Origin: Blasia pusilla | Lineage: Eukaryota | Assembly: GCA_050084515.1 (NCBI GenBank) | Contig: CM114271.1 | Location: 36,828,001 to 36,892,000 of the forward strand | Length of the DNA stretch: 64,000 nucleotides | Reading direction: 5' to 3' | Part shown: positions 31,244 through 58,900 of the stretch, piece after piece | Layout: every line of letters starts with the position of its first letter | How positions within the stretch are numbered: the first letter of the stretch is position 1 | Notes under the pieces: generated by a model | Databases searched by the model: none | What the model was told of the DNA's origin: nothing | What the model saw: the letters and a program-made list of their open reading frames with translations, nothing else | Position numbers and translations under genes: made by a program

Positions 31244-31508
31244 GAGATTTTATGTGTATATATAAATGAATATATGAAGGGCTAAAATAACGTACTATGA
31301 GTTAACAAGTTTTTGAATGTGAAGAATTATACCTTTGTTTATGGCTTTTTACCCCTTTTCGCATACACACTAAACCTTAACAACACCTTAGAGCAATCTT
31401 CAAGACTCAATTGCTACAGCTGCTCGCTAGGTTATATTCTTTCAATGTCTCTCACTCTCCAAAATTGTCAACAAATTTGATCACGTTTGAACTTGCCTTG
31501 CCTCATCC

Positions 31509-31645
31509 GCCAAAGCCGCCACTCTCAAGCTTTGATTTCAACAAGCTACACCTAACTCGCCATTTTCTAAACCTCTCTTACCTCACCTGCCAAAGCCGCC
31601 ACTCTCGAGCTTTGATTTCAACAAGTTGCACCAAACTCGCCCTTT
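31509..31645. repeat. Short direct repeat, ~55 bp x2
   Basis: gccaaagccgccactctc.agctttgatttcaacaag.t.cacc.aactcgcc at ~31509 and ~31589. Confidence 0.85.
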
Positions 31646-33910: not shown

Positions 33911-35400
33911 ATGAGTTTCATCACGGCGTCCTTTCGGAACTTTGAGAGTCAAGGTGGTGGACCTGAGAGTAGCTCTAGAGGGTTTAGCTACAGTGGTGCA
34001 AGGTTTCAAGGATCTCCACGTAAGAGACCACATCGATCTCCTTGTGTGTCGTCTTCAGACGAGGGGGAAAGTGTAGAGGAGTGTGTTAGTGATCCACCCC
34101 ACACATTGAGTGGTCCTACCAATTGAGCGTACAAGATGGACGATCAGGATAGAGGAACGCGTAGGTTTTCGGGTGCTATAGGCACTATAGTGCTACACGA
34201 CTTCATCGCGGAGTTTAGGAGTTGGTTGAACTCTAGAGGTTCAACTCGTTTACATCATGGAACCGTATGTTCCAGCATTTAGAGGGAGCACCCATGGATG
34301 ATTACCATGAGTTCTCACAGAGATATACCCATGAGATTGAGGTTTGGAGACTCTACTATGACCCACACTATGTGTTAGCAGTTTCTCGATGAGGAGGAGG
34401 AGTGAGGAGAGGGTTCCTCCACCAGTGATGTTGTAGGAGGGATGACTTGCACTAGAGCAATTGCATCGTCTAGTCCACTTCGTACCATGTTCAACACCGT
34501 GGTTGAGTTCTTCGCTGAGTTGAGGGCGAGCTACCAGGGGTACGGACGGAGAAGTTACGAAGCATCCACGACTTCCAGAGGCGCATGGGTGAGAGTTTGC
34601 GTGAGGCCTACATCCACTTGCACCGATTGATTAACGTCACTCAGGGGCACACAGAGGCTCAGGCTATCCAAATCATGGTACGCGATGTTGGGCCGGACCC
34701 AGCGGACATGTGTGCGGGAGGGGATGCTTCTATTGAACACCTCCCCTACGTTGAAAGATGTTTTTAGGACCTCCAAGAACATTGAGTGCAACATGGGGGA
34801 GGAGACTGTAGCCACCATGGGTTCTAGGCGAGAGTAGTCACGATTTCCTGCACCACCAATGTAGCAAAGTGGATTCCGAGATAGGTCTATGGCACCATGA
34901 GCTCAGGGAGGATATCGAGAGGTCGTGCCATAGAGACATGCGCCTTCATATGCGGCTCAGCAGCAACTACCTCGAATTACTTGTTTGTCATTTGGTGGAG
35001 CCCATCATCAACGCGATTACAGTTATTAGGGTCATGGTCGCGTGCCTTTGCATGGAGAAGGAGATGGTGCTGCACCAAAAGTTTATCAGTGTGACTATTG
35101 TTAGAGGTACGATGACACACGCGCTAGGTGTTTGAGCTTGCACATTGAGTTACGTTCGGACCGAGGGTCATAGAGGGCACTCAAGCGAGATGCTTGTCCG
35201 GGTTGGCCAATAGGTCGTGCACTAGGTGGTCCCGTTGGGGGACGAGGAGTTGGATTTTCCTGAGGGGATGGTGGAGTTGCCCATGGAGGAGGTAGAGTCC
35301 CACCACCCACACGCGTTGAGGGAGACGCCCGGCGTGAGGCTGGGATGGCTGCTTAGATCCATTAGCTACAGCTGTAGATTGCCGCTATGGCATTGAGGTT
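33911..35400 (+). pseudogene. gag of element B (disrupted)
   Basis: MSFITASFRNFESQ start; Retrotrans_gag-like segment EKLRSIHDFQRRMGESLREAY; degenerate CxxC...C knuckle near 35090-35135 followed by a Gly/Arg-rich tract. Confidence 0.65.
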
Positions 35401-36339
35401 ACCTGATGCCGGATCCGTGGCATCGACGTCTTATGGAGCCGCCAGAGATATGGAGGATCTTGGTTGGATATGCGGGATTGCCTAGATGGAGGCCGCTGTA
35501 GTTGTTACGCGTGGAGCAACCGCAGAGTTGGATCCACAACAAGGGGAAGCCATGAAATAGACCAAGATACCTCAGTCCTTCAAGTTATCCGAGGCGATGA
35601 GCACCCCATCGATGGATCATGGTCAGAGTTCCTGGAGAGTTGGTGATGTTGTTGATGTGCAGGCACGGAGGGCGATGGGAAAAGTGAGTGCTACGACTTC
35701 TATTGCTGATGCTGAGGAGGAGCATGTGTTGAGCACATTGTTGGGGGCGGCCATTGTTGTGTACCGTGCTCCTTTATTTTCTACTTCCAATGTTATGACG
35801 TTGGGAGGTATGCCCGAGGAGGTTTTCTGGCTGGTTGCTACGCTATGTGAGCGTGGAGTTGGAGTTTCTGCATCACATTTAGAGGTGATTGCAGAGGAGG
35901 TGATGGACTTGCCCTTAGAGCTGATGCTCGGGCTGTCCACGTCATATTCATGGTAGACTACGACTGCTAGGATAGCGGAGATGCCCACTAGACCGGCGAT
36001 AGAGCATGTCATGGTGTTGTTTTGCAGTTGGAGAGTCGAGGAGGTTGTCACATCTGAGTAGCCGATAGGCCCAAATCTATCATGGATAGGGCGTAGGAGC
36101 CAACAGACTATCTTGAGTGTAACTTTGTCCCACGGTGTCGGACGACGTTCTGACAACATGAAAGTTGTCAGAAACGACGTTCCATTGTGTCAGGAACGTC
36201 ATTTCTGACAACTTTCATGTTGAGGTCTTTTACAGCCGGGTGACTTGTTGACCAGGTCACCCGCCCCGGGTAACCTGTGCGCGCAGGTTACCAAGGGAAG
36301 GGCTATTTTTAGGGGAAGAGCCTTTTGGCTCTTCCCAAC

Positions 36340-36352
36340 CCTATATAAGAGA
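36340..36352 (+). promoter_or_regulatory. TATA box in the 5' terminal region of element C
   Basis: CCTATATAAGAG ~300 bp inside the 5' end, flanked by hairpins. Confidence 0.6.
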
Positions 36353-37976
36353 GGAAGATGGCTTTCCTAAGCCATCTTTCTCATGTTGGGCCGTTGGAGC
36401 ACCTCCCTTGCATGTGTGTGAGCTAGGACTAGGGTGCTAGCGTCCGGATTCCTTGATAGCACAGGGTGGACGAGGCTCGATATGCCGATGTAGATTGAGG
36501 AGTGGAGTTTTAGGCCGGGTGTGCCATTTTTACTACTCTTTATTTAGGGTGACCATTGCCACAGATATGGTCACACTAGGGATAGATGTTTTGACCTTCG
36601 CCGAGGGGCACGTCTAGAGGTAGGCAGGGGGTCTGGGGGCGGTCGTCCTGGAGGAGGTCGGGGAGTTCTTCCTGGACGTGGTGGTAGAGGACCACCACCA
36701 CCCAGAGGAGATGGAGCAGGAGTACCAGAGCCGGCACTTCTCTCACACATCGATCAGTTGGAGCAGAGGTTTGCTGCCATGACGATGATGCAGCTTAGGA
36801 AGGCACGGACTGCGGCGCCTAGTGTGACTCAACTTCTACCTCTTACCCGACCCGGGTGAGGATCTCTCTCAAGATGGGATTCATGTGTAGTGCAAGCCCA
36901 GGTTGAGGCAGGTTGGCAAAGTGGTGACTGGGAAGTCTGCGAGAGGCACTGAGCCATCGAGAGGTGGAGTTGAGATTGACCCACTAGAGGGGACCGATGG
37001 GCGGGGAGGCCAGGGTTCCACAGTCGTTCACATTGTTGGAGGTACTACACACACCATCGATGGTGCCTCGACGACCAGCGGTGCCTACAGTTCAAGCACC
37101 TACGTCGACGTCACGAGGAGTTGGAGTGACAACTCCTATGCCGGCTCGAGTGGATTCACTGTCGACTATAGTGTTGGAGGTGGCCACTAGAGTGAGTCAG
37201 ACTCCGCTATTTTCCGCCATAGAGTTGGCGACGATGGGAGTTGGACCAACTAAGGTATTCCGGTTGGCCGCCACGTTGTGTGAGCGTGGAGAGATTACTG
37301 CTTCTTGTTCAGAGGTAGTTGAGGAGGTGGTGGACTTGCCCTCAGAGCCGGTGATTGGGACGTTCCCCACAGAGTCATGGCATACGGCGGCGGCAAAGTT
37401 GGTAGATATGCCAGCTCGACCGGCCATAGAGCGGCAAAGTGGTGACACTGGAGTAGTGTTATTGGATAACCGAAAGTGGAGTATTTCGCTTGGTTAGTCC
37501 GATGGGGGGTATACCACCCAGCCGGCCAGCGTCCTACTTGATTCAGGAGCGCAACCCTTGATGTTAGGGAAGGCGGCGTGTTTAGCGTTGGGGTTACGGA
37601 AGGCCGACATTGAGCTTTGTCCCTTCCAGATACAGACCTCGATTGGGGGCATATCACCCACTCAGTATATGACTCGACAGGAGATTGTTGTCAGAGTCTA
37701 GCCAGAGCATGCGACGGATAGTGCTATGGTGCGCACCCCTGCAATTACGACACCAGCTGAGTCGTATGATGTGTTGGTGGGGAGTACAGTGTTACATCCC
37801 CTAGGATTCATCCTTGACTTTTGGGAGGAGACCGTTGCTTATCGGCGAGGATGGCGGTCAGGTGACGCCCGGATGAGTCAGTTACCGTGCAATTTGCGGG
37901 ATGAGATGGTCGATCACGAGGCGAGTCTGTGACCACGTTGGCAGCTTTCACATGTAGTGTTAGCTGACCAGGAGAG

Positions 37977-39467
37977 TTGTTGGAGGGGAACGCACATGCG
38001 GAGGATGTCCCAGTAGCGGATAGTCCCACGGAGAGACAGGCCATGGCGGGTGTCTCTTCCCATGTTAGCGATGCCTCTTCACCATTATGGGGTACGACTC
38101 AAGAGCTACAGAGGAGTGCCGACGACCTCGTGAGGCAGGCGTGGAGTCATGTTTTTATCCCAGAGCAGCAAGAGTCACGTGGCAATCGGGCTCTTGGAGT
38201 GGAGACGATGACCCCACTAGATACCACACCTGTTGTGTGGCAGTTCCCAGAGGAGGGTGTGAGGGTGTTAGATCTCTTCGGAGGGATTAAGACCGGATTG
38301 GTTGCCATATTGCAGGCGGGCATACGGGTGCATCAGTACCTTTATGTGGAGAGAGATGAGACCGCGCAGCGAGTATCATTACGTTACGTGGCGAGATTGG
38401 TCTTGAGGTATCCTGAGTTGTTGTCGGTATTTGCAGTACGGGGATACCAGCATATGCTACCCGCCGACATCTCTTTGGTGGGGCCGCAGGATCTGGATAG
38501 AGTTGGCACCATTCATTTGGTGATTCTTTGGATGGCCATGTCGGGTCATTCATCAAGAAGGCGAGGATTTGGATTGCAGGATCCGAGGTCATGGATGTTT
38601 TGGGAGATGCTGCGAGTAGTACGACACTTGCAGGAGAGTCAGATATGTTCTCCTGCGTACATTTTGGAGAACGTGGCATTGTTGGGAGACACTCGTGCAC
38701 CTATGATGACGAGTGTACATCAGGTGAGGTCCTCGTTGGGACCTGCTGTGTTGTTAGATGCAGCGAGAGTTGGGTCACGTGCCCATCGTCCACGACTGTG
38801 GTGGACGAACCTGATACCATCACAGGTACTGAGTCGAGCATACAGTGGAGTCCAGAGAGCACCACATCTCACGGTGGATGCTATTTTGGGCTCAGGGCGT
38901 CGGTCTCAGGTGGTGACACGCGATGATAGACCACCGTTGGCCACGGCCAATAGGGTGGGGGAGTTGAGGGCATCCTTACCTACGTTGGTGAGCTTCCCAG
39001 CATCCCATGCCTTTTGTCAGGGAGGGCCAGGCATGATTTGGAATGAGGTGACCGGAGCATTGGAGGAGCCTACAGCAGATGAGCGCGAGCGCGCCATGGG
39101 GTTCACCACCGATACTACGGCGGTGCCACGGATGACTGAGGCATCACGGAGACAGATGTTGGGGCAGGCGATGGACCTCAATTGTCTCACATGGATAATC
39201 AGCCTAGGTATGGCTGAGCAGAGACGGATGCGAGTGTCATCCATGCCGTCACGTCCACGAGTTGGACCATTGCCTACAGGGTCTGTACAGGCATTGGCTG
39301 GGGGCGAGACGAGGAGAGATAGGCACCCATGGACTTCCTGGGACGTCGTTCGAGCAGAGAGTGCGAAGGCGGCTAGAGAAGCACATATTCATTTTTCAGA
39401 TGTGGAGCATGGTGTAGGAGGTCAGAGTGGAGTGGCTATTGCAGAGGTGGCTAGGGTTGCTACATAG
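37977..39467 (+). CDS. DNMT3-like C5-cytosine DNA methyltransferase domain within the retroelement polyprotein (catalytic motif IV locally out of frame)
   Basis: Motif I VRVLDLFGGI; II YLYVERD; IV GWPC in a shifted frame at 38530-38541; VI YILENV; VIII LLDAARVGSRAHRPRLWWTNL; IX ERERAMGF; X RRQMLGQAMD. The order and wording parallel the DNMT3 catalytic domain (IRVLSLFDGI, GGSPC, LFENV, AAHRARYFWGNL, EMERVFGF, RQRLLGRSW). Confidence 0.92.
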   Translation: MLEGNAHAEDVPVADSPTERQAMAGVSSHVSDASSPLWGTTQELQRSADDLVRQAWSHVFIPEQQESRGNRALGVETMTPLDTTPVVWQFPEEGVRVLDLFGGIKTGLVAILQAGIRVHQYLYVERDETAQRVSLRYVARLVLRYPELLSVFAVRGYQHMLPADISLVGPQDLDRVGTIHLVILWMAMSGHSSRRRGFGLQDPRSWMFWEMLRVVRHLQESQICSPAYILENVALLGDTRAPMMTSVHQVRSSLGPAVLLDAARVGSRAHRPRLWWTNLIPSQVLSRAYSGVQRAPHLTVDAILGSGRRSQVVTRDDRPPLATANRVGELRASLPTLVSFPASHAFCQGGPGMIWNEVTGALEEPTADERERAMGFTTDTTAVPRMTEASRRQMLGQAMDLNCLTWIISLGMAEQRRMRVSSMPSRPRVGPLPTGSVQALAGGETRRDRHPWTSWDVVRAESAKAAREAHIHFSDVEHGVGGQSGVAIAEVARVAT

Positions 39468-39599
39468 CAACCAAAGCCGGAGGTTGCGTCCTCTGCCAGT
39501 GAGGTCACGATGGAGACTTGGGAGCCTGTGATAGGTCTCAAGTTGATAGGAGGAGAGCGACGGCGAGTTCATAGATTTCTGAGAGGGCATGTCAGTTGT

Positions 39600-40905
39600 T
39601 TTGCCTTCAGTATGAGAGACTTGGGTACGCTGAAGGGTCATGGTATACGGATTGAGTTGGCTAGTGATACGCCGGTCTTTCGTCGACCCTACAGGTATTC
39701 TGATATGGAGCGAGCCTTGATTGAGATCAGGAGTCATGACTTGTGGAGTTATCACATGGGGAGTATGCATCTGCCACAGTCATGCCGACGAAGAAGGATA
39801 TGTATGGCAATTGGACGGATATGCGGATGTGTGGAGATTACCGTCCTATCAACCGACAGACGAGGTCAGATCGCCACGCCATGCCTACTCGTGAGGAGAT
39901 CTTTGATGTGGTAGGGCATGCAAAGATCTTCAGTACATAAGATCTCCGTGTTGGCTATCATCAGCTTCCTATCAGGTTGGAGGACAGGGAGAAGAGAGCA
40001 TTATGGGGGATAGATCGATTCGGGAGAGATTGCTAATATCAGTGGCGGTTCTTACCATTTGGGTTGAAGAACGCGCCTGCGGAGTTTCAGAGAGTGATGG
40101 ATAGGATTCTGGCTGGCTTGGATTTTGTACGATGTTACATAGATGATATTCTTATCTTTAGTTCCACGGTTGAGGAGCATGAGCGACACTTGGAGGAGGT
40201 GTTTCGGGCGATTGATTACATGGACTGAAGTTACATCCAGGCAAGTGCAGATTCTTTCAAGAGCAGATTGAGTACTTGGGACACACCATATACCCGAGTG
40301 GGTTAGGCGTTCAGCAGACAAAGGTAGAGGCTATTGCGCAGATTCCACGCCCTACAGATGTGAGTCGAGTCCGAGCATTTCTTGGACTGGCGAACTTCTA
40401 TCGACGGTATGTCAAGGATTTTAGTGCGATCGCAAAGTCTTTGACCTTGTTGACGAGTCTTGATCATGTTTGGTTTTGGGGAGATGATTAGGAGCGAGCA
40501 TTTCAGGAGCTCAAGGACAGGTTGACGTCCTCACCCATTTTACAGAGACCGGTTAGGGGTCGCCCATTCCAGTTACATATGGATTGGAGCATGTTGGGTC
40601 TAGGAGCAGTGCTTACTCAGAGGGATGATGAGGAGAGGGAGTTCGTTGTGGCTTACGCGAGCCGATCGAACAACATTGTAGAGGCAAAGTACAGCTCCTA
40701 CGAGGGAGAGTGCTTGGCTGCAGTATGGGCCGTGGCACATTTTAGGTGCTATTTATTCGGCAACCCTCTCACACTTATCATTGATCATCAACCGTTGAGG
40801 TGGTTGATGGAGTCCCACAAGCTTATGAGAAAGCTTGCCAGGTGGGCTCTATTACTACAGGAGTATGAGTTTGAGGTGGTTTATAGGCCAAGTCGCATGA
40901 ACTAG
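39600..40905 (+). pseudogene. Ty3/gypsy reverse transcriptase and RNase H of element C
   Basis: RMCGDYRPIN, GYHQL, LPFGLKNAPAEFQRVMD, YIDDILIFS, VRAFLGLANFYRRYV; RNase H FQLHMDWS...GLGAVLTQ...VAYASR...YEGECLAAVWAV...DHQPL. Several stops and frameshifts. Confidence 0.95.
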
Positions 40906-41254
40906 GATGCGGATGGGTTGAGTCGTAACCCATGTCCGAGTCAGAGAGACGACACAGGAGCTCGATGGCACGGAGAGAGTGATGAGGAGATGGTGCTCGG
41001 TTGGCATGCATCTGCCTATCTTTGTTGGTTGACTATGGCAGGTCAGCCACAGGTGATGACTCCATTGGTGGGATTGGATGATGAGTCTTTGGATCGGGAG
41101 GTTAGTGAGGAGGCGACAGGTGGTCGTGATATCCATGACGACGTGGAGGTTGTGGAGTTCTTGCGATTTGGCGTCATTGTAGTGAAGTGAGTGCTAGGGA
41201 GCGGATCGGATCCCTGAGAGAGCCAAGAGGTTCAGGTGGGAGGGGACTCACATT

Positions 41255-42544
41255 TTGCGGGTATGGGGAGATGGTAGGATACGAGTGGTACCTCATCCTT
41301 CCCAGCGAGCACGTGTAGTGCGACATGCTCATGAGGAGTTGAGACATTTTGGAGTAAAGCGTACTTACAACTTACCCAGGTTCGATATTGGTGGCGCGGC
41401 ATGCATCTTTGGGAATCTGTTGTTTGTGGCGGATGTATGGTATGTGACAGAGTGCGAGCATCCTTCAATGCTTCCACTCCGCAGTTACATCCTTTGCCGA
41501 TTATCGATTTAGGTTATCGGTGGAGTTTAGACTTAACGGGACCTTTGCCATTGACAGGGCGTCATCATAGGTACGTGTTGGTCATGGTGGAGCATTTCTC
41601 CAAGTGGATAGAGTTGGTGGCACTACCGGACAAAGCGGCGAGGAACGGCTTATGCATTTCTAGATCGTGTGCTTAGTCACTTTGGTGCACCGGCGGAGGT
41701 GTTGACTGACCAAGGTACTGAGTTCAGGGGAGAGTTTCAGGCCTTGTGTGATCAGGCGCTGATAGATCACCGCACCACCTCCAGAGATCATCCTGAGGCG
41801 GATGGGTTGGCGGAGAGAGTGGTACAGACGGTGAAGAGAGGATTACGCAAGTATACGTGCGATTGAGGGAGTGGGATGTTGCCATGGTTGGCTATGGGTT
41901 ATCGCTTTAGTCGCGCGCAATTGTGCGCCATGTCATCTTCGAACGAAGATGGGGACGGTGGATCCGAGCTTGGCGCGATGGTACATCCAGGCTTGAGTTG
42001 TATGTTGTGCGGATCTGGTAGCCACCATGTTGGTATGTGATCGAGGCTTATGCATTTCTAGATCGTGTGCTTAGTCACTTTGGTGCACCGGCGGAGGTGT
42101 TGCGACCATGTCATCTTGAGTTCAGGGAGAGTTCAGGCCTTGTGTGATCGGGGCCGATAGATCACCGCACCACCTCGAGAGATCATCTGAGGCGGATGGG
42201 TTGGCGGAGAGAGTGGCCAGGCGGTGAAGAGAGGATTACGCAAGTATGGCTTGCAGCGGGTACAGTTGAGGGAGTGGGACCTACAGTTGCCATGGTTGGC
42301 TATGGGTTATCGCTTTAGTCGACGCAATTGTGCGCCATGTCATCTTCCGAACGTAGATGGGACGGTGGATCCGAGCTTGGCAGTGGTACCTGCAGGCTTG
42401 AGTTGTATGTTGTGTGGATCTACGAGGGGTGCAGCCACCATGTTGGTATGTGATGGTTGTTCTCGAGGGTGGCATATGTCATGTCTGACCCCCCCTCTTG
42501 ATGTGGTTCCCACGGGACGATGGATGTGTCTGAGTTGTGTATAG
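41255..42544 (+). pseudogene. DDE integrase with C-terminal PHD finger, element C
   Basis: HHCC (AHEELRHFG...CMVC), WSLDLTGPLP, VLTDQGTEF, HPEADGLAERVVQTVK; PHD CMLC...LVCDGCSRGWHMSCLTPPL..VPTGRWMCLSC. Confidence 0.92.
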
Positions 42545-42762
42545 GGTAGTAGGTCATGTCAGAGAGATGTGATATTTTCTATCTGGAGTTAGGGGGATCA
42601 AACTGCCAGCTAGGGGGGCAGTTGTGTGATCTCCATGTGTATGTATGAGTTGATTTTTGTACATGTGTGGATCGACCCGTGTGCGGGGAAGATCGGTGTT
42701 GTGTGGTGTAGATGTGACGAGCGATGTATGTTGTGTAGCGATATATATGCGCACGACAAGGT

Positions 42763-44201
42763 AGAGCTTTTAGTCCGCAGCGCATCTTCTTGGATTCAGG
42801 AGCGCAACCCCTATTGTTGGGGAAAACGACATTTAGAGGATTGGGCTTGACCAGAGCCGATGTGGAGCGTTGTCCATTCCGGATACATACATCCTTGGTT
42901 GGAGCAAGTACCACACACTATATCACCCAACATGAGGTTGTGGTAAGGATTCACGATGGACATCCTACAAATGAGTCTGTGGTGCGAGCCAAGGTGATAG
43001 TGATTGATGCAGAGACCTACAATGTCTTGGTTGGTGGAGTAGTGTTGTACGCTATGGGGTTTTCGTGGATTATTGGGAGGAGTCGTAGACCAAGATGGCA
43101 ATCTGGTGATGGATGACTTTGTTCATTCCCCGTTTGATTCACAAGTGTAGTGATCGAGCGGCGGCCATAAGAGATGGCGACCTAAGCAGCATTTAGCAAC
43201 GCCATCACTTGGCCTAGTGATTTGATTGAGGGACATGTCCATGCTGAGGATAATCCCATTCCTGATATTTCTATAGAGAGGAGTGTCATGGTCTCCGCAT
43301 CAATCCGTAGAGGAGAGGTGCCGCTTTGGGGCTCAACTGAGGAGCTTCGACGTTTAGCCACTGAGCATGTGCAGATCGCGTGGAGCGAGACATTTACACC
43401 AGAGCGTGACGGGTCATAGGAACCAAAGGTATCCGAGAGTGCTACTATGACCCCTTTGGACACCACCCCGATTGTGTGGTGCATTCCAAATGAGGGTCTT
43501 CGCGTGTTAGATGTCTTTGGCGAGATTAGCACTGGTTTAGCTTTTTTTTTACATGCATGAGTACACGTGCATCAGTACTTGGATATGGAGATTGATAATG
43601 TTGCGAGGCGCGCTTTACTTCACCATGTGGCGTAGTTACGCCTCCATTTTTCGGCCTTGTTCTTTGCGTCCGCTGTCCCGGGATATCATAGTTTCCTACC
43701 GAGGGATATTTCATTGCTAGGGGTGTAGGACTTGGAGCGAGTAGGGACCATAGACTTGGTCATTTATGGTTGGCCGTGTTAGGGCCAATGGAGTGTTGAC
43801 TCTTGATCCAGGTTATTTTGGGAGATGATGCGGATTTTGTGACACTTGCAGGAGCATCAGTTCCGTTCTCCAGCATACATTATAAAGAATGTGCCGAACC
43901 TAGGAGATTTGAGGTCACGGGTGGTGACAAGTGCACATCATGTGCGTGCATGGATCGGCTCAGTAGTGTTTTTGGATGCGGCGAGTGTAGTGTAGGTTTT
44001 GGAGCTCACCGCCCCCATCTTTGGTGGACCAACTTGGTGCCACATGAGGTGTTGCAGAGGGCATATGCGCGAGTGGAGCGCCCCATTGATTTGTTGGTGG
44101 ATTCCATTCTGGATCCAGGTCGTCGATCATAGACGGTGAGGCATGATGATAGACCGCCGTTGACTGTGGTGAAGAGGATTGGCGTGCCACAAGCAGCCTT
44201 G
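42763..44201 (+). pseudogene. Protease and DNMT motifs I-VIII of element B
   Basis: FLDSGAQPLLLG; GLRVLDVFGEISTGL (~43495); IDLVIYGWPC*G (~43750-43785); YIIKNV; AHRPHLWWTNL. Confidence 0.88.
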
Positions 44202-44429
44202 GAATGAGAAAGAGATAATTATATTATAATAAAAATTTAAATAAAGAATATTTATTTTGACAATCCACATTCAATTATAAAATTAGCATCATTTGAGAGG
44301 ACATCGATAATATGGAATACTTTCAATACATAATAATAATAATATAGCTACTATTTGATCTAGTCACAAACAAGTATTAAACCTACTAAAATAAAATAGT
44401 ATTAAAAAAATAAAATATTAGATATGTGA

Positions 44430-44430
<1 letters not shown>

Positions 44431-44468
<38 letters not shown>
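44431..44468. repeat. (AAT)n microsatellite
   Basis: Directly visible within an AT-rich block. Confidence 0.95.
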
Positions 44469-44470
<2 letters not shown>

Positions 44471-44952
44471 TCAGAAAAAAAAGTGAACCAGAAAAATATG
44501 TTAAAAAAAAAGAGAGTAATAAGATGGAAATCTTGAATACAAAACTCTCAATGATAAATAATATCATGTATAAATAGTAAATATTTGATAAAACAATAAT
44601 AAAAAAATCCAAAAACAAAAAAAAATCCATGTTTGGACAACAACAACCTTAAGTATATCATAAATAGGCAAAATTTAATCATTAAAAAAATAAAATTATT
44701 CACACATAATAATTTTAAATAAGAAATAATTACCTAATGGTGTTTTAAAGTTTCTAATCCAACAAGATAACAAATAAAGCTTGAGTACTAATTTGTATGT
44801 TTAAAAAAATATTAAAATAAAGTCCAAAAACTAAATTATCTAAGGCAGTGAGAACGAAGTCTATAGAGCACGGTATAAGATTGTACGTGAACGAAGAGAG
44901 GCCATGGCGTGACATGTTAAGGCGTGAGCAAAGAGCATGTGAAGGAAGTAGG

Positions 44953-45675
44953 TGTCGTGCGTATATACATTGCTACATAAAATACATAATTGTCGACAAA
45001 CATACACACAAACACACACAATCCGATGCTAACTCATGGCATCCAAAAACGAGACAAGAATAATAAAATATCTCCAATAAATCAAGTAGATCCAATCTCT
45101 CTTAACACCATAGCTCTCAAATATGTGCACTCTCACGTGTCTCTCTCAATGTCAAACCAAAGCCACTCTCTTAATGAGAGGCTTGGGTTACACTCACAAG
45201 GCAAGCAAGACCATAGCTCCGCCATCTCATGCCAAGAGCTTCAACAAAGAGAGAATGAGCTCTCAATCTTTCTCTCCTTGAGGTATACCCCCTTCCCTTT
45301 CCCAAGCTCTCTCCTCGATAACCTATGCTCGCAGGTCACCTCTTTGACTCTTGACATGCTGTAGCGGGTCAAGGGACAACTATAATAAATATGGAAACTT
45401 ATCCAAAATAGCAAGTCTCTCTATATGGCTCCAAATCAGCCGAAACGAAGGGGAAGTCTGATGTCTCAGATTTCCCGAGACGTCAGTAGGTTATCCTTGA
45501 CCTCCTCTACTCGCGAAGGTGCTCTATCAAATCTCTCCGATCTATCCTAAAAAGTCATGATAAGTGTCGTGCGCATACACATCGCTCTTGAAAAATATAC
45601 ACATAAATACGCACAACCCCATGCTAACTCATGACATCCAAACAACGAGACAAGAAGTACCAAAATATTTCCAAT
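44953..45675 (-). repeat. 3' split-repeat block of B/D: B1 (45565-45675), A2 (~45110-45562), B2 (44953-45078)
   Basis: Two copies of a ~110-128 bp B segment bracket one A segment. Confidence 0.9.
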
Positions 45676-48600
45676 CGCCCATCTAGTTGGTGGTTAGGTC
45701 CCTCTAACTCCAAATAGCCATCTATCCGAATCTACAATGACATACATCTCTCAAACGCTAGGAGAAAAGAGGTTGGGTGTTGATGTGGCCCCATTTTTGT
45801 CGTCTTCTTGTCATTAATGTCAGAGACACAAGTCGAAGTCTAGAACTACCTACCCTATGTAAATGTGGGACACATTTATCATCCTTAGGAACCCTAGTGA
45901 GAGGTGGTGTCAGACATGCCATATGCCACCCTCTCGAACACCCATCATAGACTAGCATAGTGGCTACACCACACCCGAAACCACATAACATACATTGCAA
46001 GTATGCACGAACTACTACTAAGATTGGATCAATTGTAGCGTCAATGTTAGAAAGGTGACATGGCGCACAATTACGCACATGGTCCTTTCAAACCATACCA
46101 TCGCGTACCTCCAATAAGAGAACACAGATGGCAAAATCTCATGATGGTGCGCCTTGTAGTCACACCCACCGTTGTAGGTGCCGTATGTTGCAAGTAGACA
46201 TAGTCTCCTTCATGAAACCTCCGGATAGAAGGTCGATAACCACCTCCCCAAATAGTTGTATACCTCAATATATCCTGATGCTGCATAATCGCAAAGTTCT
46301 CAAACGCCATGGGCATCACTCTCCGAAACAACTCAGCCCTCTAAGAACATGCTCGTATCCATACATCATGGTCATCAAGGTTCAACACCTCACCAACATC
46401 TTGACAAATGGCCGCATGTAAATATGGCTCTCGGCCATAAAGCAACAAGTATGGTGAAAAAGACGCTAAGGATGCCTGCCTGCCTGTTGAATCTGTATCC
46501 CATCGCCAAGTATGGCACCTAAAGGTCCCAATCTCTTAGCTGACCTCTTCGCAAGCCATACTTGCGTAATCATCTCTTCACTATCTGCACAACCCTCTCC
46601 GCTAGTCCATCCGCCTCGGGATGATCTTGCAAAGTGGTGCATTAGTCGATCAGCGCTTGATCACACAAGGCTTCAAACTGCCTACGAAAATCAGTACCCT
46701 GGTCTCTCAACACCTCAATTGTTGCGTCGTAATGACTCAACACTCGATCTAGGAAGACATACGCTACTCCCTCACTCGCTTTGTCAAGAAATGCAACCAA
46801 CTCTATCCACTTTGAGAAATGCTCGACAATCAACAACACATAAGGACTCATCAAAGGCAAAGGTCCTAAAAATCATCAAAGGCTAAAAGGACTGCAACTG
46901 TGGAGTCGAAGTATTGAACATGTGTCTCCTAGCGACACCTGGATGCCTCGCCAAACTCGTTTGTTTCACTCCAAAATGACCCAACCGCCGTGGGCATGAC
47001 GCACCAAACGTGCTCTTTACAAAGGGATCCAATCCGCATCCTCCTAGCATCCTCTTTGCTCGCAGGATCCAATCCCGCTCTCTAGCATCCTCTTTGCTCG
47101 CGACACTGCTAGTACACAGGTACTCTGAGACCACTCCATTGTCATGAATGCCTCGACCACTTGTCGTCTCCTCACCGGCCTCTTCATCTAAGGACTCTCC
47201 ATCAGACCTCGCCATCGAAGTCTCAGCAATCTAGCTCTCCATAGCCAACAAGCCCAAATAGGCTAAGGTATGTCATCGTGGCACCAACTTCTCGTCGCTC
47301 TCGCCATGCCAACCAGCTTCAATCACATCTCCTTGACTCAAGCATGGGTTATGTCCCAAACCATCTGCATTCTAGTTGAGTATCTAAGGTCTACGCACCA
47401 CCTGGAAGTCATACTCCATCAACCACGTAAGTGGCTAATGATCTGTAATAATGGTGAAGGGATTGCCGAATAAATAACATGTGAAATGTGCAACAGCCCA
47501 CACCTCAGCCAAGCACTCACCCTCATACAAGCTATACTTTGCCTTTGTAGCGTTGTTCAAGCGACTAGCATAAGCCACCACGAACTCTCTACCATCATCG
47601 CCATGTTGGGTGAGCACGGCTCCAAGCCCCAACATGCTCCAATCAATATGCAACTGGAAAGGACGCCCCTTGATTGGTCTCCTCAATATGTGCGTGGACA
47701 TCAAATTGTCCTTGAGCAGCTGAAATGCTTTCTCCTACTCATCCTCCCATTGCCACTCCTGATCCACCTTGGTCAGCAAGGTTAGCGACTTTGCAATCAA
47801 TACGTACCATCGATAGAAGTTCGCCAGTCCCATGAATGCACGAACTCGACTCACATCTGTAGGGCGTGGAATGCCTGAAATAGCCTCTACCTTCGTTTGG
47901 TGCATACCGACGCCCCTTGGGTATATCGTATGACCCAAGTACTCGCTCTGGTCGTAGAAGAACTTGCCCTTGCCTGGATGTAGCTTCAACCCATGTTACG
48001 ATAATCATCGAAACACCTCCTCTAGATGTCGCTCATGCTCCTCAAGCGTGGCGCTAAAGACTACGATGTCATCAATATAACACCTATAAAAATCTAGACC
48101 TGCCAAGATCCTATCCATGACCCTCTGAAACTGAGTTGTGGCTTTCCTTAAACCGAATGGTAAGAATCGCCACTAGTACAAGCAATCCTTCCCATTAGGA
48201 TTGATACCCCAAAATGTCATCTTCTGCTTGTCCTTCAATCTGATAGACAACTAATGGTATCCGACTCGCAAATCCAATGAACTGAAGACTTTTGCATGCC
48301 CAATCGCATCAAAGATCTCCTCAGGGGTGGGCATGGCATACGTGTCGGACTTTGTTTGCCAATTGATAGGTTGGTCATCTCCACACATCCGCCTATCTGT
48401 CCAATTGCCATGCACATCCTTCTTGGCGAGCATGATAGTGGCAGATGCATACTCTCCGTACGACATCTCTACTAGTCCTACTCCGACAAAGTCTTGGCTC
48501 CTACTCTGAATCACAGCCCTCTCAATGTCACTATTCCTCTAGGGTCATCGGAAGATCGGCGTGTCACTTGACAACTTAATGTGGATCCCTGGACCCTTCA

Positions 48601-49288
48601 ACGTAACCAAATCCTACATGCTAAATGCAAAATAGCTCCTATGACTCCATAGGAACTGATGTATCTGGCGCCGCTCTCCTCCTGTCAACTTAGGGCCCAT
48701 GTCTGGCTCCCAAGTCTCCATTATGACTGCGGTAGGACTCTCCAACGCGGGTGTAGGTGGTTGCTATGATGCAACCCCGTTTCGAAAAACGGAACTCGAC
48801 TGCTCTCTTGCAGCCAACTGCAAAATTTGATCTCCATGTGCAATATCTGGAACCATGCTCGATGTTGTGGCTACCATCTCTTGGCGTACCTACAAAATAT
48901 CCCAAGAAGTCCAGGGGTCTCTCTCCTGATCACCCCTGGTGTATCAATCTCCTCGGGTCTTGCCCCCAACCACTGCCTCAACCGTCTCGGTAGGCATGGG
49001 GCTCACCGACGCAACAGTTGTGATATGTCGCATCCTCAAACGATGTTGCTCAGCTACTCCTAAGCTGAAAATCCATGTCAAGCAATTCAGGTCCATCGCC
49101 CGATCCAAGATATGATGTCGTGATGCTTGTGAAAGTGACGGTTTTATCGTCACTCTTGTGGAAAATCCCATCGCTTGCTCACGCTCATCGGCATTGGGCT
49201 CCACCAACCTGTGTATCTGGTCATCCCAAACCAAGCCAGGCCCGGCCTCCTTGAATGCATATGAAGCAGGGAAACTCACCAATGTGGC
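44953..49288 (-). mobile_element. DNMT-gypsy segment D (3' half of element B, inverted): DNMT C-terminus, RT, RNase H, INT, PHD, B1-A2-B2
   Basis: Begins at TLVSFPASYAF...EREQAMGF...HILDRAMDLNCL. ORFs 48251-48514 (RT), 47435-47704 (RNase H), 46642-46860 (INT), 45758-46078 (PHD). Ends in ...CACGACA followed by CCTA. Confidence 0.92.
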
Positions 49289-53920: not shown

Positions 53921-54678
53921 TGTCGTGCGCATACACATCGCAACACAACATACATCGTTGTCACCGAACACACACACAAACACGCACGATCCCATGCTAA
54001 CCTATGGCATCCAAACAACGAGACAAGAAGTACCAAAATATCTCCAATTAAAGTAAGATCCAATCTCTCTCACAACACCATAGTTCTCACATGTCTCTCT
54101 CAACATCAAACCAGACCCACTTTCATAATGAGAGGCTTGGGTTACACACACAAGACAAGCAAGACCATAGCTCCGCCGCCTCATGCCAAGAGGTTCAACA
54201 AAGAGAGGATGAGCTCTCAAGCTCTCTCTCCTTGAGATATACCTCTCCCCTCTCCCAAGCTCTCTCCATGATAACCTATGCTCCCAAGTCACCTCCTTGG
54301 TTGTTGACATGATGTAGGAGGTCAAGGGCCACTTACAAAAAATAGAAAGTCAGTAACATACTCAAAATGGTACTTACCTAAAATAGTAAGTTCTCAATAT
54401 GGCTCCAAATGAGCCGAAACGAAGGGGAAACCTTTCTCTCAGGTTTCCCAGGGCCTGAGTAGGTCATACTCGGCCTACTGAGTCTGTCCTCCGCTACTCA
54501 CGAAGGCGCTCTACTAGATCTCATCGATCTATCCTAAGAGACGTGACAGTTATCGTGCACATACACATCGCTACACAACATACATCGATATCACCGAACA
54601 CACACACAAACACGCACGATCCTATGCTAACTCATGGCATCCAAACAACGACACAAGAAGTACCAAAATATCTCCAAT
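53921..54678 (-). repeat. 3' split-repeat block of E: B1 (54551-54678), A2 (~54080-54548), B2 (53921-54048)
   Basis: Near-identical 128-bp B copies flank A; purine tract ACTAGGGGGGCG lies immediately before B1. Confidence 0.93.
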
Positions 54679-54858
54679 CGCCCCCCTAGTTGGTAGTTAG
54701 GTCCCTCTAACTCCAGATAGCCATCTATCCCTACCTACGATGACATACATCTCTCGGACGCTAAGAGCAAGAAGATTGGGTGTTCATATGGCCCCATCGT
54801 TAGTCGCCTTCTTGTCATCCATGTCACAGACACAAGTCAAAATGTAGAACTACCTACT

Positions 54859-55909
54859 CTATGTACATTTGGGACACATCCATCGTCCCTTAGGAACCCT
54901 AGTGAGAGGTGGCGTCAAACATGCCATATGCCATCCTCTCGAACACCCATCATAAACTAGCATAGTGGCTGCACCACGGGCGGAACCACACAACATACAC
55001 CGCAAGCCTGCATGAACTATTGCTAAGCTCGGATCAAGTGTACCATCAATGTTCGGAACAGTTACGCACATGGTCCTTCCAAATCATACCATCGCGTCCC
55101 TCCAATAAGAGAACACCGGATGGCAAAACCGCACGCACTCTCAAGATGGTGCGCCTTGCAGTCACATCCAACGTCGTGGGTGCCATCTGCTGCAAGTAGA
55201 CATAGTCTCCTTGATGAAACCTCCAGATAGTAGGTCGATAACCACCTCCCCGAATAGTCGCATACCTTAACGTATCCCGATGTTGCGCAATCGCCAAGTT
55301 CTCAAACGCCATGGGCATCACTCTCCAAAACAACTCAGTCCTCTCAGAACATGCTCGCATCCATACATCATGGTCATCAAGGTTCAACGCCTCACTAGTA
55401 TCTCGATGAATGGCCGTAGGTAAATCTGCCTCACGGCCATAAAGCAACAAGTACGGTGAGAAAGACGCTAAGGATGCCTGCCTGCTGAATCTGTATCCCA
55501 TCGCCAACCACGGAAACTGAAGGTTCCAATCTCCTAGGTGACCTCTCTGCAAGCCATAGTTACGTTGTCCTCTCTTCACCGTCTGCACAACCCGCTCCGC
55601 TAGTCCATCCGCCTCAGGATGATCTCGCGAAGTAGTGCGGTGGTCGATTAGTGCCTGATCACACAAGGCCTGAAACTCCCTGCGGAACTCTGTACCCTGG
55701 TCTGTCAACACCTCAGCTAGTGCGCCGTAATGACTCAGCATTCGATCTAGGAAGGCATACGCTACTCCCTCACTCGCTTTGTCAGGCAATGCAACCAACT
55801 CTATCCACTTCGAGAAGTACTCGACCATCATCAATACATAACGACTATAGCGCTCCGTCAAAGGCAAAGGTCCTGCAAAATCCAAACTCCATCTATAACC
55901 TAAACCCAT
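54859..55909 (-). pseudogene. Integrase core plus PHD finger of copy E
   Basis: WSLDFAGPLP, VEYFSKW, VLTDQGTEF, ADGLAERVVQTVK, SPYLLLYGRE; PHD CMLC...WHMACLTPPLTRVPKGRWMCPKC after a small frameshift. Confidence 0.92.
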
Positions 55910-58900
55910 GATGGGAAGTGTTGTGGAGTTGCAGCATTGAACGATGCTCAGACTCGATCACACACCATGCATCTTGCAACAAACTGCTGAACGTCAGTCT
56001 GCATGCCTTGCCACCAATACTAAATCTAGAGCAAGCTATATGTCCGCTTCATTCCAAAATGACCAAAATCCTCATGGGCATGACGCACCAAACGTGCTCT
56101 CTACGAAGGATGAGGCACTACACCCACTCTACCATCCTCCCACACTCGTAACACATGTATCCCCTCCCAACGGAACCGTCTAGCCCGCTATAGGACCCGA
56201 TCCCGCTCTCTAGCACCCACTGTGCTCGTAACGCTGCCAGTACGCAGATACTCCAAGACTACTCCATCATCGTGAATATCTCGACCACCTATCGTCTCCT
56301 CACTGGCCTCGGGATCTAAGGACTCTCCATCAGACCTCACTATCAAAGTCTCCACACTCTGGCTCTCCATGGCCAACAAGCCTAAATAGGTTGACGCGTG
56401 CCATTCCGGCACTGACTCCTCATCACTCTCTCCATGCCATCGAGCTCTTGTTGTATCTCGGTGACTCAGGCATGGGTTACGACTCAGCCCATCTGCATCT
56501 TGGTTGAGCGTCCCAGGTCTATGAACCACCTGAAAATCGTACTCCTGCAGCAATAGAGCCCATCTCGCAAGCTTCCCTATAAGCTTGTTGGACTCCATCA
56601 ACCACTTTAGTGGTTGATGATCAGTGATGATGGTAAAGGGGTTTCCAAATAAGTGACACCTGAAATGTGCGACAACTCACACCGCAGCCAAGCACTCACC
56701 CTCATACGAGTTGTACTTTGCCTCTACAACGTTGTTCGAACAGCTAGCTCACCCATTGTGGCACGACATGCAACATAAAATCCACATGGCAAGAATGTAT
56801 TATGTAGTATCTATATGGATGCCTTACTCTAGTTTCCAGGTTACGGAGAGCACCTGACTCCTACGATAGTGGATGATGTATGGCATGGATGGAAGACTCA
56901 TAACCAAGTCTTCTCCAACCATGATATCCTAGCAAAAATTAATGGTAAGTTCCTCAAACTCTCAATAGGATTTAATACAATCTCTTGTATTTAGTCATTT
57001 CACAAAAGAGATTAACTCTACATTGTGTGTATGGTATAACATGAGATGCGGCATATGCATCCTTATGGACCCCGTTTGGAGGAGGAGAAACGAGGACAAC
57101 ACATGTTTATGTTGATCGGCATAGATAATCCTCTATCCTTCTACAATAAAGGAATTGATTATTTAGAGAACCTCTTTATTTGCGAGATGGATTCTGGAGG
57201 AGGACGAGGAGACCTTATAAAGTGTACACCCACCAGCTCTAAGATAGAGTAGGATGCCCTGGTTGGATAGTGCTTTCAATGGATGTATACTAAAAAAAGA
57301 AGAAGATGCATATGCATGTAAATCCAAAATCATCTCCTTGTCGCTCTCTCCATGTCATTGAACTCCTTTCTTATCTCTTTGATTTGTACATGGATAGCAA
57401 CTCAACCCATCTACTTCTTGGTTCAACCAACATGGCCCATGAACCATGTAAAACCATATTCATATAGTAATAGAGTCCACGTGCCAACCTTACGTACAAA
57501 CTTTTATGCTACGCTCTCGAAAGTGATATACACTCAAACTCACTCATAATAGCCATGCTTTGGATCAACGAGCATTGCTTCTCCCGAGTTTGCATCTCGT
57601 GTCATCCCTCAAACTCAACAATCCTAAACAAGCTCATATACCAACTTAAACCTCGCTCCCTAAGACATGTAGGCCATTCAAGAAGCGGGACAAACTTCCT
57701 TCATAATATAGGGATATAAAATTATACCAGTATGCTTGATGACCACGACTTTCCGATGGACCTTGAACGAGTCTCTAATCAGACCTCGAAATTGGTGTCC
57801 AAATGCAAGGCTCGATGTTAGGAGTGAGAACTGGATTAGATGGACTTAACTTCGTATCAACCTCAATGCTAACTTTTTAGTCCATGTTGTTGCCTTGGAT
57901 CGACCTCGCAATCACCAAGGTGGATTTAGGCCTCAAAATTCCTTTGGAGATCCTCCCCTTTTTTTTCTTAGAGAATTGAACAACATATTCTCCTACAAAT
58001 CCCTTTTGGATTGCCCCACGTGGTCCTTAAACCCAAACAATGATTTTGATAATTGAAGCCCTACTTGAATAGTTTTTATTTTTATTTGTGGTGTGTTGTA
58101 ACTAGCTCCTCACAACTTTTCCAACACCACCTCGTTCATCATAAACAAATATTTGATGTAATGACCACGACCTCAACGCGGAAAACCACTACAAGATAGG
58201 TTCAAATTTCTCCAGAGTCTATCTTTTTTGGGACTTGAACTGTTTTTACGTTCTAGTTGGTTAGCGTCCTTCTTGCTTACAACTACTATCATTCTAGATG
58301 CCCATTTAATCTTGGGTCTCGCCTCTACAACTCTTGCCTCGTTTGCGAGACTTCGACGTATTTCCATCATAGTGAAAGCCATTAGAGTTGTGACGATCCG
58401 CATTGGTGTAGTTTGGTCATGGAAATTGCTATATCTAAAAAGTCTTATAGTGAGTAATGCTACTTGCTTAGCCTCAAATATGCAACATTCTAAACTTTAT
58501 AAATTCAACATTGTTATAAGACTTTACACTATCCAACAAATTACCAAAAATAGTCATATCTCCTAATCATTTCGGGTCTATTTTCCATGTCTGTAGTCCT
58601 CTTTACGATATTAGGATCTGTTATAAAAAAAATTGTATTTGTCACCCCCAACGATCCAATGCATTTAATAGGAATTAAGTTGCAGTATAGAAAAATCATA
58701 GTTTTGTGATTAATTATGATTCGGAACATTTTTTTTTTCAAGTTAAATATAGCTATTTGGACTTCCCACAAAACCTCTAGTTTATAATTGATTGATCACT
58801 AGTAACCAACCCAAATATCAACATTAATACCTTACGGTGAGAAAGGAATGAAACTAACCACACATGCTTGTTCTATTGATAGTTAACATATCCCATTATA

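Follow-up and report, generated by a model that had tools for sequence, protein, structure and literature searches.

Split direct repeats in a Ty3/gypsy-type retrotransposon family with a DDE integrase: probable architecture of a repeat block in Blasia pusilla

The window analysed here is a stretch of 64,000 nt of Blasia pusilla DNA (contig CM114271.1, positions 36,828,001 to 36,892,000 of the forward strand), within which three elements together make up the region 32059-45690, namely a host, an insert nested in it and the tail of a third copy (Table 1). Host element H opens at 32059 with segment A1 (first letters TGTCAC). Element N is nested inside this host element; once N and one copy of its TSD are removed, the reading frame of H runs unbroken from gag into PR. 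The third copy (copy 2) carries the repeat block 44953-45690, and two further blocks of the same kind lie elsewhere in the window, one in copy E and one in a degenerate relative of element N.

The coding order of the family, obtained by tblastn, is PR, a Dnmt3-like C5 methyltransferase (DNMT), RT, RNase H, DDE integrase and a PHD finger. Pfam domains RVT_1, RT_RNaseH, Integrase_H2C2, rve and PHD were matched among the ORFs of the window and of the related locus L035, with RT_RNaseH matched in element N itself. The RT had Ty3 as its best PDB match (E 3e-44). The DNMT ORF sits between PR and RT and has homologs carrying PF00145; all 25 of its PDB matches, weak ones with an E of 1e-5, were to DNMT3A, 3B or 3C. 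No match to Phage_integrase (PF00589) was found in the ORFs scanned, namely 18 of the 20 L035 ORFs of at least 90 aa and nine ORFs of the window. The gypsy order RT-RH-IN, the TG..CA ends and the 4-bp TSDs that an earlier note on this DNA had described are thus borne out, by the tblastn and Pfam order, by the AGGT duplication around element N and by the TSDs of related loci. Named homologs came from Marchantia, Calypogeia, Riccia and Sphagnum, and also from Closterium, the nearest alga found, with no Klebsormidium protein among the homologs found. Many Marchantia proteins match the family, and the window was matched by tens of thousands of contigs at 80% likeness.

Table 1 Features of the elements and repeat blocks in the window.
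Feature	Positions	Strand	Basis or remarks
Host element H, 5′ part: A1 (32059 to ~32541), leader, gag-like region	32059-36045	+	Broken at 36045 by element N
Nested element N, 6.7 kb	36046-42758	+	Ends TGTCAC...CACGACA; TSD AGGT at 36042-36045 and 42759-42762
Element N, order of parts	A′ 36046-36545, gag, PR, DNMT 37968-39464, RT, RH, IN, PHD (stop near 42543), G-tract 42610-42620, B′ 42621-42758	+	
Host element H, continued: PR and N-terminal part of DNMT	42759-44201	+	tblastn; junction reading
Purine tract GAAGGAAGTAGG	44941-44952		Flanking DNA outside the element; equivalent flank of copy E without conservation
Terminal B, copy 2	44953-45078	-	True 3′ end of element; minus strand reads ...CGCACGACA; boundaries read from sequence
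Segment A (A2), copy 2	45079-45562	-	Reverse-complementary to A1 by blastn; MAFFT concurs
2-nt spacer, copy 2 (CT on minus strand)	45563-45564	-	Between CA end of internal B and start of A
Internal B, copy 2	45565-45675	-	Sequence match to terminal B
G-rich tract, copy 2 (CTAGATGGGCG on minus strand)	45676-45686	-	Directly upstream of internal B; candidate polypurine tract
Copy 2 pol remnants: PHD, integrase, RNase H, RT, C-terminal part of DNMT	45887-49285	-	tblastn with element N ORF pieces
Copy E 3′ block	53921-54689	-	Terminal B 53921-54048, A 54049-54548, nn 54549-54550, internal B 54551-54678, G-tract 54679-54689
Copy E pol remnants (PHD, integrase, RNase H)	54862-57417	-	tblastn
Fourth 3′ block, degenerate relative of element N	9929-10680	-	G-tract end near 10671, B″1 ~10670-10527, nn 10526-10525, A″ ~10524-10061, B″2 ~10060-9929

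The repeats of the block at 44953-45690 are real, as the earlier note had it, with 85% identity between its B copies over 86 nt. Their orientation had been misread. By blastn, A1 (32066-32537) aligned with the minus strand at 45555-45112 (80%, 478 nt, E 8e-129), so that A2 is an inverted and not a direct repeat of A1. Because of this inversion, and of the minus-strand RT, RNase H, integrase and PHD remnants to the right, we read the block as the 3′ end of a minus-strand copy instead of the end of a plus-strand element that starts at 32059. Copy 2 is truncated at its 5′ end. The purine tract said to precede B1, GAAGGAAGTAGG, lies in flanking DNA, and copy E carries CCGAGCTCATA in its place. Copies 2 and E become homologous precisely at 44953 and 53921, respectively. 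A conserved G-rich tract stands on the other side of both blocks, and the position that it takes in copy 2 is held by CTAGGGGGGCG in copy E, element N and family M. Since B-A-B reads alike in both directions, the architecture proposed for the family survives the strand error.

Contigs joining 45045-45053 to 45640-45654 were seen in run X1 only, with short sides of 20-22 nt. They were considered as copies without A and set aside, as each seems to derive from a single B copy whose parts were assigned to different Bs. Contig depth dips at 32968-33451 and 44100-45067, to which no evidential weight is given.

Copy E shows the same layout independently, as had been claimed, with B copies that match at 94% over 126 nt (E 5e-49) and an A segment whose minus strand (54537-54085) aligns with A1 at 81%. 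Its remnants gave Pfam matches to rve in 55046-55957 and to RT_RNaseH in 56188-56676. In the fourth block, A′ of element N aligns to 10331-10073 at 69% and B′ aligns twice, to 10629-10526 and 10032-9935. Three minus-strand 3′ ends in the window read G-tract-B-nn-A-B. The stretch G-tract-B′ at the 3′ end of element N matches its counterpart in copy E at 69% over 186 nt. Among Logan contigs of four runs, the end of A′ was joined to the start of B′ in 14+5 contigs of X1, three of X2, 2+1 of X3 and one of X4, and the end of B′ was joined to the start of A′ in two contigs of X2, three of X3 and one of X4.

Two 5′ ends in the window (A1 and A′) open with A, and no B follows it. The earlier statement that only A stands at the 5′ end held for A1, where local alignment of B to the sequence before and after gave scores of 12-24, where shuffled sequence averaged 15-18 and reached maxima of 21-30. 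Two short collinear B-like matches, not significant, were the only ones in the flanks of A1.

The same layout was then compared across 73 related metagenome loci, whose contigs come from short-read assemblies. No 5′ A copy had a B before or after it (0/16, with 13 distinct flanks). A G-tract followed by B was present in at least 12 of the related loci; the tract always adjoins B, and a G-tract directly before A was never seen in the related loci or in the window junctions read. Complete B-nn-A-B was found in L033, L051, L055 and L065, while in L005 the series B-nn-A is interrupted by the contig end. The spacer at the B-to-A junction was 2 nt in all eight junctions read, and the junction forms a short inverted repeat, ...GACA-nn-TGTC.... 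Two loci, L065 and L033, hold whole A-internal-B-A-B elements with 4-bp TSDs (AATC and TCTC); L032, L035 and L023 hold A-internal-B elements with no internal B-A, each with its own 4-bp TSD (TACA, TGTT and TGTG). The duplications are perfect in these five two-ended relatives (5/5), which with element N makes six of six complete elements. The layout is common to three sequence-unrelated A families (the A1 type, the A′ type and family M). Identity between A1 and A2 within an element (86-94%) is not above that between elements (80-90%) and so carries no age signal. L065, L012 and L009 contain nested repeats of ~800 nt, which were considered as possible solo A-B units and rejected; they belong to a different element, ending ...GGGGTTGCGACA.

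The A...B forms need separate comment. At one locus, L023 (A...B) and L055 (B-A-B) have flanks that are 95-99% identical and element sequence that is 91% identical. As the relatives are metagenome contigs, A...B forms could come from an assembler skipping the B-A-B loop; copies with A...B only would be assembly collapses, or else deletions by recombination between the two Bs.

Taken together, 44953-45690 is very probably the 3′-terminal repeat block of a 5′-truncated minus-strand Ty3/gypsy-type copy, from a family of the form A-leader/gag/pol-G-tract-B-2 nt-A-B with TG..CA ends and a 4-bp TSD, in which the repeats are split direct repeats and not an LTR pair. The combination A1...B1-A2-B2 with a DDE integrase accordingly stands as the architecture of the family, in the window and in related loci, and falls as a description of a plus-strand element at 32059-45690.

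Three simpler accounts of the block were weighed against this reading. A single plus-strand element running from A1 at 32059 to a purine tract-B1-A2-B2 end at 45690 would make sense of the 12.9 kb between A1 and the B-A-B block, with plus-strand pol genes in between, and of the GAAGGAAGTAGG just before 44953; it is extremely improbable, as A2 matches A1 in reverse complement, the block is followed by pol remnants on the minus strand, the plus-strand pol is part of nested element N, which stops at 42758 and has a separate TSD, and the purine tract is missing at copy E. Hardly more credible is an ordinary LTR consisting of A+B, with copies rearranged, deleted or misassembled and the internal B a chance partial duplication. 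A+B does read TGTCAYG...CRCGACA, a normal LTR outline, and the short-read origin of the contigs and the many fragmentary copies in the window would suit such an account, but B follows the 5′ A in none of 16 relatives and neither of the two cases in the window, the G-tract adjoins B and never A, the layout recurs in the three unrelated A families, and the TSDs enclose the whole A...B-A-B unit. Copies with A+B at both ends, which the earlier note had named as contrary evidence, were found neither in the window nor among the related loci. The same note had pointed to A2-B2 units with TSDs of their own, and A2-B2 might be a separate solo insertion or tandem partner beside an A...B element. Elements of the A...B form with their own TSDs are indeed known here (N, L032, L035 and L023), and the B-to-A joint resembles two element ends 2 nt apart. 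No A2-B2 unit with its own TSD was found, however: the 4 nt before A2 and after B2 differ (CAAT/AATC in L065, CAAT/TCTC in L033) and it is the outer flanks that match. With the constant 2-nt spacer (8/8) and the recurrence of the arrangement in diverged subfamilies, this makes a separate origin of A2-B2 extremely improbable.

How such ends might be rebuilt is suggested by the candidate priming sites of the split-repeat family. The tRNA-iMet PBS motif had three matches in the window against 4.99 expected, none of them beside A, and ARAGORN found no tRNA genes in the window. In family M, A holds CTCAAAGAAC-ATA-GTTCTTTGAG ~30 nt after GTATAAAG, and the leader opens with CTCAAAGAAC; by hand count, the 3′ hairpin arm and the leader form 8 to 10 of 10 pairs in eight loci, with two compensatory changes of the pairing in the L023 lineage. 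Element N has the same arrangement in other sequence, with GGGTGAC...GGTCACCC inside A′ and AGGGTGACC in the leader. The best TATA box in N is found downstream of this hairpin, at odds with transcription beginning from the hairpin arm. In host element H, A1 contains a covarying hairpin with no complementary leader.

The G-tract adjoining B may be the plus-strand primer site, and the leader segment right after the 5′ A, pairing with the hairpin arm in A, may be a self-priming minus-strand site as in Tf1/sushi. The candidate self-priming proposed here resembles that predicted for Tcn1 elements of mosses and club mosses (PMC6317226). Reverse transcription would then yield a cDNA with B-nn-A as its functional LTR, and the copy found integrated would be a circular permutation of this cDNA, opened inside one LTR at the ...GACA-nn-TGTC... 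junction, which would supply the ends used by the integrase. This specific mechanism, with its G-tract, self-priming, B-nn-A LTR and permutation at the inverted-repeat junction, is drawn from sequence and is offered tentatively, as possible but less likely than not. We regard as improbable the broader proposal of a streptophyte-wide DDE-integrase lineage that makes an ordinary cDNA with a B+A LTR, its integrase using the internal GACA-nn-TGTC, most likely on a 2-LTR circle, with all integrated copies permuted. If a 2-LTR circle were opened at either LTR, A-B-A-leader copies would be expected; 15 independent 5′ ends included no such copy, so a simple model of random cleavage misfits.

Reverse transcription of the PAT/Ngaro type would give another route to the same ends. 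The transcript would be missing the first part of A1 and the last part of B2, which template switches would restore from the internal B1-nn-A2 junction, and a linear A-internal-B-A-B cDNA would be inserted by the DDE integrase via its TG..CA ends. The layout equals the A-coding-B-A-B of DIRS-type elements as given in one figure legend (Fig. 1e of de Mendoza et al. 2018, PMC5890265), integrated copies invariably open with the start of A and close with the end of B, between 4-bp TSDs, and the lack of A-B-A-leader 5′ ends (0/15) suits a directed product over random opening of a circle. Against this, the G-tract adjoins B1 and the leader complement adjoins A1, from which an ordinary scheme would make an LTR of B+A, and no template-switch path to A-internal-B-A-B could be derived from these primer positions. 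We consider the PAT/Ngaro-type scheme possible, if somewhat unlikely.

Compared with canonical Ty3/gypsy elements (Metaviridae), the family shares the PR-RT-RH-IN order, a Ty3-like RT, TG..CA ends and the 4-bp TSD, and differs in having no identical LTR pair, with A only at the 5′ end and B-A-B at the 3′ end, and in the added DNMT and PHD. PAT/Ngaro/TOC1-type elements and SymbioDIRS-Dnmt3 encode a tyrosine recombinase and are not known to make a TSD or to carry a protease or a DDE integrase. The family resembles both in its A-coding-B-A-B layout and in an internal B-to-A joint that equals the joined element ends; it differs from them in rve and Integrase_H2C2, in the 4-bp TSDs and in the absence of any Phage_integrase found.

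The closest published description is of KnitGypsy-Dnmt3 from Klebsormidium nitens, to which a figure legend assigns DIRS-type repeats with Gypsy domains (Fig. 4c of de Mendoza et al. 2018, PMC5890265). By description, that element likewise has a Dnmt3-related methyltransferase within a Gypsy-type Pol and DIRS-like repeats, here A...B-A-B. Its host is an alga, whereas the family described here is found in bryophytes, and the text passages on it make no mention of TSDs, termini, PPT position or junction. The same combination having been noted in that legend, the novelty of the family is weakened, and the bryophyte member is what is new. The earlier note had proposed Troyka elements as candidate relatives. 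Both are gypsy-like lineages whose atypical ends may escape standard tools, but Troyka is described as having 3-bp TSDs, CG..CG termini and animal hosts (Kojima 2025, PMC12440569), against 4-bp TSDs, TG..CA ends and streptophyte hosts here; identity with Troyka is therefore ruled out by TSD length, termini and host. Nothing relevant was found in PMC11982613. The Klebsormidium legend was the only published remark found on split repeats together with a gypsy integrase. A search of the literature on split-direct-repeat retrotransposons gave no integrase element among the matches listed, at the level of titles and abstract openings; one on integrase retrotransposons with a DNA methyltransferase in bryophytes or Sphagnum gave no match, and the relevant reports found on A1-B1-A2-B2 concern DIRS/Ngaro only.

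Split direct repeats count as the signature of retrotransposons that encode a tyrosine recombinase and integrate from circles; in this family they occur together with a DDE integrase, TSDs of 4 bp and ends in TG..CA. Annotation tools that seek paired LTRs will mis-annotate such elements. The Dnmt3-like and PHD domains within them also make the family interesting for the study of epigenetic interplay between transposon and host. If the streptophyte-wide proposal were true, circular cDNA would be a productive integration precursor of an integrase-bearing element, and gypsy-type and DIRS-type replication would be linked. The family is abundant in bryophyte genomes, including that of the model liverwort Marchantia, and its G-tract-B, self-complementary leader and A, 2-nt inverted-repeat junction between B and A, and TSDs around the whole unit make the rebuilding of element ends testable in a tractable plant.

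Self-comparison of the window and a repeat scan confirmed the B-A-B repeats of the interval 44953-45690 (copy 2) as well as the like block of copy E, an A segment lying between two B segments in both. The 5' A segment at 32059 (A1), of which the earlier note had taken the A of the block (A2) as a direct repeat, aligned at 32066-32537 to the minus strand of both blocks (45555-45112, 80% over 478 nt, E 8e-129; copy E 54537-54085, 81%). MAFFT agreed, and A2 is therefore inverted relative to A1. Nor does the block end a plus-strand element, as had been proposed: tblastn with pieces of plus-strand ORFs placed PHD, integrase, RNase H, RT and a methyltransferase C-terminal portion between 45690 and 49285, in each case on the minus strand, and the identical domain order beyond the copy E block, out to 57417. 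Copy 2 and copy E share 81% identity across 2 kb, with similarity starting exactly at 44953 and 53921, positions that mark the true 3' terminus of the element (minus-strand reading ...CGCACGACA). In element orientation, both ends run PHD, a G-rich tract (CTAGATGGGCG or CTAGGGGGGCG), B, 2 nt, A, B and flank. The purine tract at 44941-44952, previously assigned to the element as preceding its first B, is flanking DNA; copy E has CCGAGCTCATA at the equivalent position.

Downstream (element orientation) of a diverged family member's gag-PR-DNMT N-terminal fragment (11639-12920, minus) lies a fourth block. This copy, for which no 5' A was found, looks non-autonomous, with RT, RNase H and integrase lost. 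A perfect (TG) x 79.5 microsatellite (11462-11620) sits inside it, between the DNMT fragment and the 3' block. Elsewhere, a perfect (GA) x 76.5 microsatellite (23866-24018) contributes to the strong purine skew of 22001-24000, and two tandem copies of an 80-nt unit (31490-31645, 86-88% identical) occur in C/T-rich DNA just upstream of A1.

Coordinates of retroelement features in the window and in related metagenome loci (family M)
Feature	Location	Coordinates	Strand	Remarks
B segments, copy 2	window	44953-45078; 45565-45675	minus	mutual match 85% over 86 nt
B segments, copy E	window	53921-54048; 54551-54678	minus	mutual match 94% over 126 nt, E 5e-49
Fourth block	window	9929-10680	minus	degenerate, layout as in copy 2
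Element N	window	36046-42758	plus	TG..CA ends, 4-bp TSD
Element H (owner of A1)	window	32059-36045; 42759 to about 44201	plus	split by element N
Dnmt3-like C5 cytosine methyltransferase	window	37968-39464	plus	499-aa ORF between protease and RT
Further Dnmt3-like stretches	window	43213-44201; 48833-49285; 11639-11983	plus; minus; minus	
A...B-A-B elements	L065; L033			TSD AATC; TCTC
A...B elements	L032; L035; L023			TSD TACA; TGTT; TGTG
Repeat ending AAAGTGGGGTTGCGACA	L065	6476-7282; 10286-11076		
Repeat ending AAAGTGGGGTTGCGACA	L012	2438-3077; 4811-5457		
Repeat ending AAAGTGGGGTTGCGACA	L009	6439-6895		
Repeat ending AAAGTGGGGTTGCGACA	L023/L055			just after PHD finger

What had been read as one plus-strand element starting at A1 is in fact element N nested in a host, element H. 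AGGT at 36042-36045 is repeated at 42759-42762, and with 36046-42762 removed the frame is continuous from the gag-like region into protease, which together identify element N as an insertion inside element H. Its A-type segment (A'), different from A1, starts at 36046 with TGTCACATC. On the 3' side of the PHD stop (near 42543), CTAGGGGGGC is followed by a 138-nt B-type segment (B') ending GCGCACGACA at 42758, and the two align to their counterparts in copy E, its G-tract and internal B. Logan contigs from four runs of the source organism, at 80% likeness to the window, show both an A' end joined to a B' start and a B' end joined to an A' start, so both adjacencies are present elsewhere in the genome. 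The integrase region of element N carries a ~400-bp tandem duplication (41647-42041 and 42045-42454, plus; 86% identical, a 58-nt stretch 100%).

A methyltransferase alignment led to 73 metagenome loci with family M. Its A segment (about 338 nt, TGTCATGACC...CATTTTCA) was found at 16 5' ends, which have 13 different flanks between them. Two outcomes would have spoken against the earlier note, A and B together at both ends, or A2 and the terminal B (B2) as an independent insertion; B was found neither before nor after the 5' A at any of the 16 ends, and no TSD of its own was found on an A2-B2 unit in family M elements. One conserved leader follows the 5' A at 13 of the 16, a variant leader in L023 and L053, and unrelated sequence in L004. 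In at least 12 loci, B (117 nt, AGTTGTGGTAC...CGCACGACA) comes directly after CTAGGGGGGCG, on the 3' side of the PHD finger. It is followed by 2 nt and A in L005, L033, L051, L055 and L065 (in L044 the B/A joint carries a small deletion), with the full B-nn-A-B (nn, 2-nt spacer) in the last four of these five; in 10 loci unrelated flank follows B directly. Five elements have both ends in a single contig, each with a perfect 4-bp TSD. The flanks of L023 (A...B) and L055 (B-A-B) are 95-99% identical, a pair that fits loss of A-B through recombination between two B copies but could also reflect a contig skipping the B-A-B loop; the A...B form is therefore less secure than A...B-A-B.

Family M elements also contain several insertions of a different repeat (about 650-800 nt, ending ...AAAGTGGGGTTGCGACA). 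L011 (same locus as L017) holds a rearranged copy at about 6200-6700 (minus), in which an inverted copy of the leader and A end runs straight into the 3' untranslated region that precedes G-tract-B. In L041, an ordinary 786-nt LTR pair (1398-2183 and 8444-9228, 94% identical) surrounds a gypsy-type element of another kind, nested in opposite orientation within the DNMT of a family M copy; canonical LTR elements thus coexist with family M in one host.

Pfam matches were RT_RNaseH and rve in the window, and RVT_1, RT_RNaseH, Integrase_H2C2, rve and PHD in the relatives; Ty3 was the best solved relative of the RT (E 3e-44). The 499-aa ORF itself had no Pfam match at E 0.01. All 25 of its PDB matches were DNMT3A, 3B or 3C, at weak E (about 1e-5), and its homologs in Calypogeia, Marchantia, Riccia, Sphagnum and Closterium (identity up to 64%) carry PF00145. 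Methyltransferase relatives are annotated "hypothetical protein" in Marchantia polymorpha, Calypogeia fissa, Riccia, Sphagnum and Closterium. A PHD finger at the integrase C-terminal end (window 42191-42541, plus; L035 10661-10963, PF00628 in L035) holds the place of the chromodomain in chromoviruses.

In KnitGypsy-Dnmt3 of Klebsormidium nitens, a Gypsy-type Pol contains a Dnmt3-related methyltransferase, and the Fig. 4c legend gives it DIRS-type repeats with Gypsy domains, the same combination as in the window family (de Mendoza et al. 2018, PMC5890265). The phenomenon is thus already in print, if only as a legend remark. A literature search returned no further paper naming KnitGypsy and none about members in bryophytes; more may be found in the PMC5890265 figures and supplements. 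Troyka, suggested for comparison, does not fit, given the 3-bp TSDs, CG..CG ends and animal hosts described for it (PMC12440569).

The conserved G-tract adjoins B. The first 10 nt of the family M leader, CTCAAAGAAC, can pair with the 3' arm of a hairpin within A (CTCAAAGAAC-ATA-GTTCTTTGAG, about 30 nt after a GTATAAAG box); by hand count 8 to 10 of 10 positions pair in 8 loci, and in the L023 lineage two compensatory changes keep this pairing and weaken the hairpin. Element N has a like arrangement of unrelated sequence (GGGTGAC...GGTCACCC inside A', leader AGGGTGACC). In standard retroviral replication, the polypurine tract sets the LTR start, immediately downstream of it, and the minus-strand primer site sets the LTR end, immediately upstream. 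If the G-tract next to B and the leader next to A were both used, cDNA LTRs would be B-nn-A, and integrated A...B-A-B would be a circular permutation of the cDNA, opened at the B/A joint. We propose this specific model tentatively, as possible but doubtful. The B/A joint forms a short inverted repeat (...GACA nn TGTC...), CA and TG being exactly 2 nt apart in each of the eight junctions read, and retrovirus work indicates that integrase may cut such a junction in circles. The arrangement in family M and element N resembles Tf1/sushi-type self-priming, which has been predicted for moss and club-moss Tcn1 elements (PMC6317226).

Against permutation, random opening of 2-LTR circles should give A-B-A-leader copies, and none occurred at the 15 independent 5' ends; in element N the TATA box is 3' of the hairpin, and element H showed no leader matching a hairpin. 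The main rival, PAT/Ngaro-like template switching that would make linear A...B-A-B cDNA directly, is in our view only slightly less probable than the permutation model. DIRS-type elements have the repeat layout in common with the window family, but the tyrosine recombinase is theirs: Pfam found no such domain among 18 of the 20 ORFs of at least 90 aa in L035, a complete relative, or among nine window ORFs.

The earlier note was thus right about the repeats and wrong about strand and element assignment; its interpretation holds in part, since split repeats do occur together with a DDE integrase, and recurrently, across diverged subfamilies and hosts. With the window family, a kind previously noted in a charophyte gains a bryophyte member. 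New here are the correct anatomy of the window, whole elements bounded by TSDs, the positions of the G-tract and of a candidate self-priming site, and the constant 2-nt junction, and the replication mechanism is now testable.
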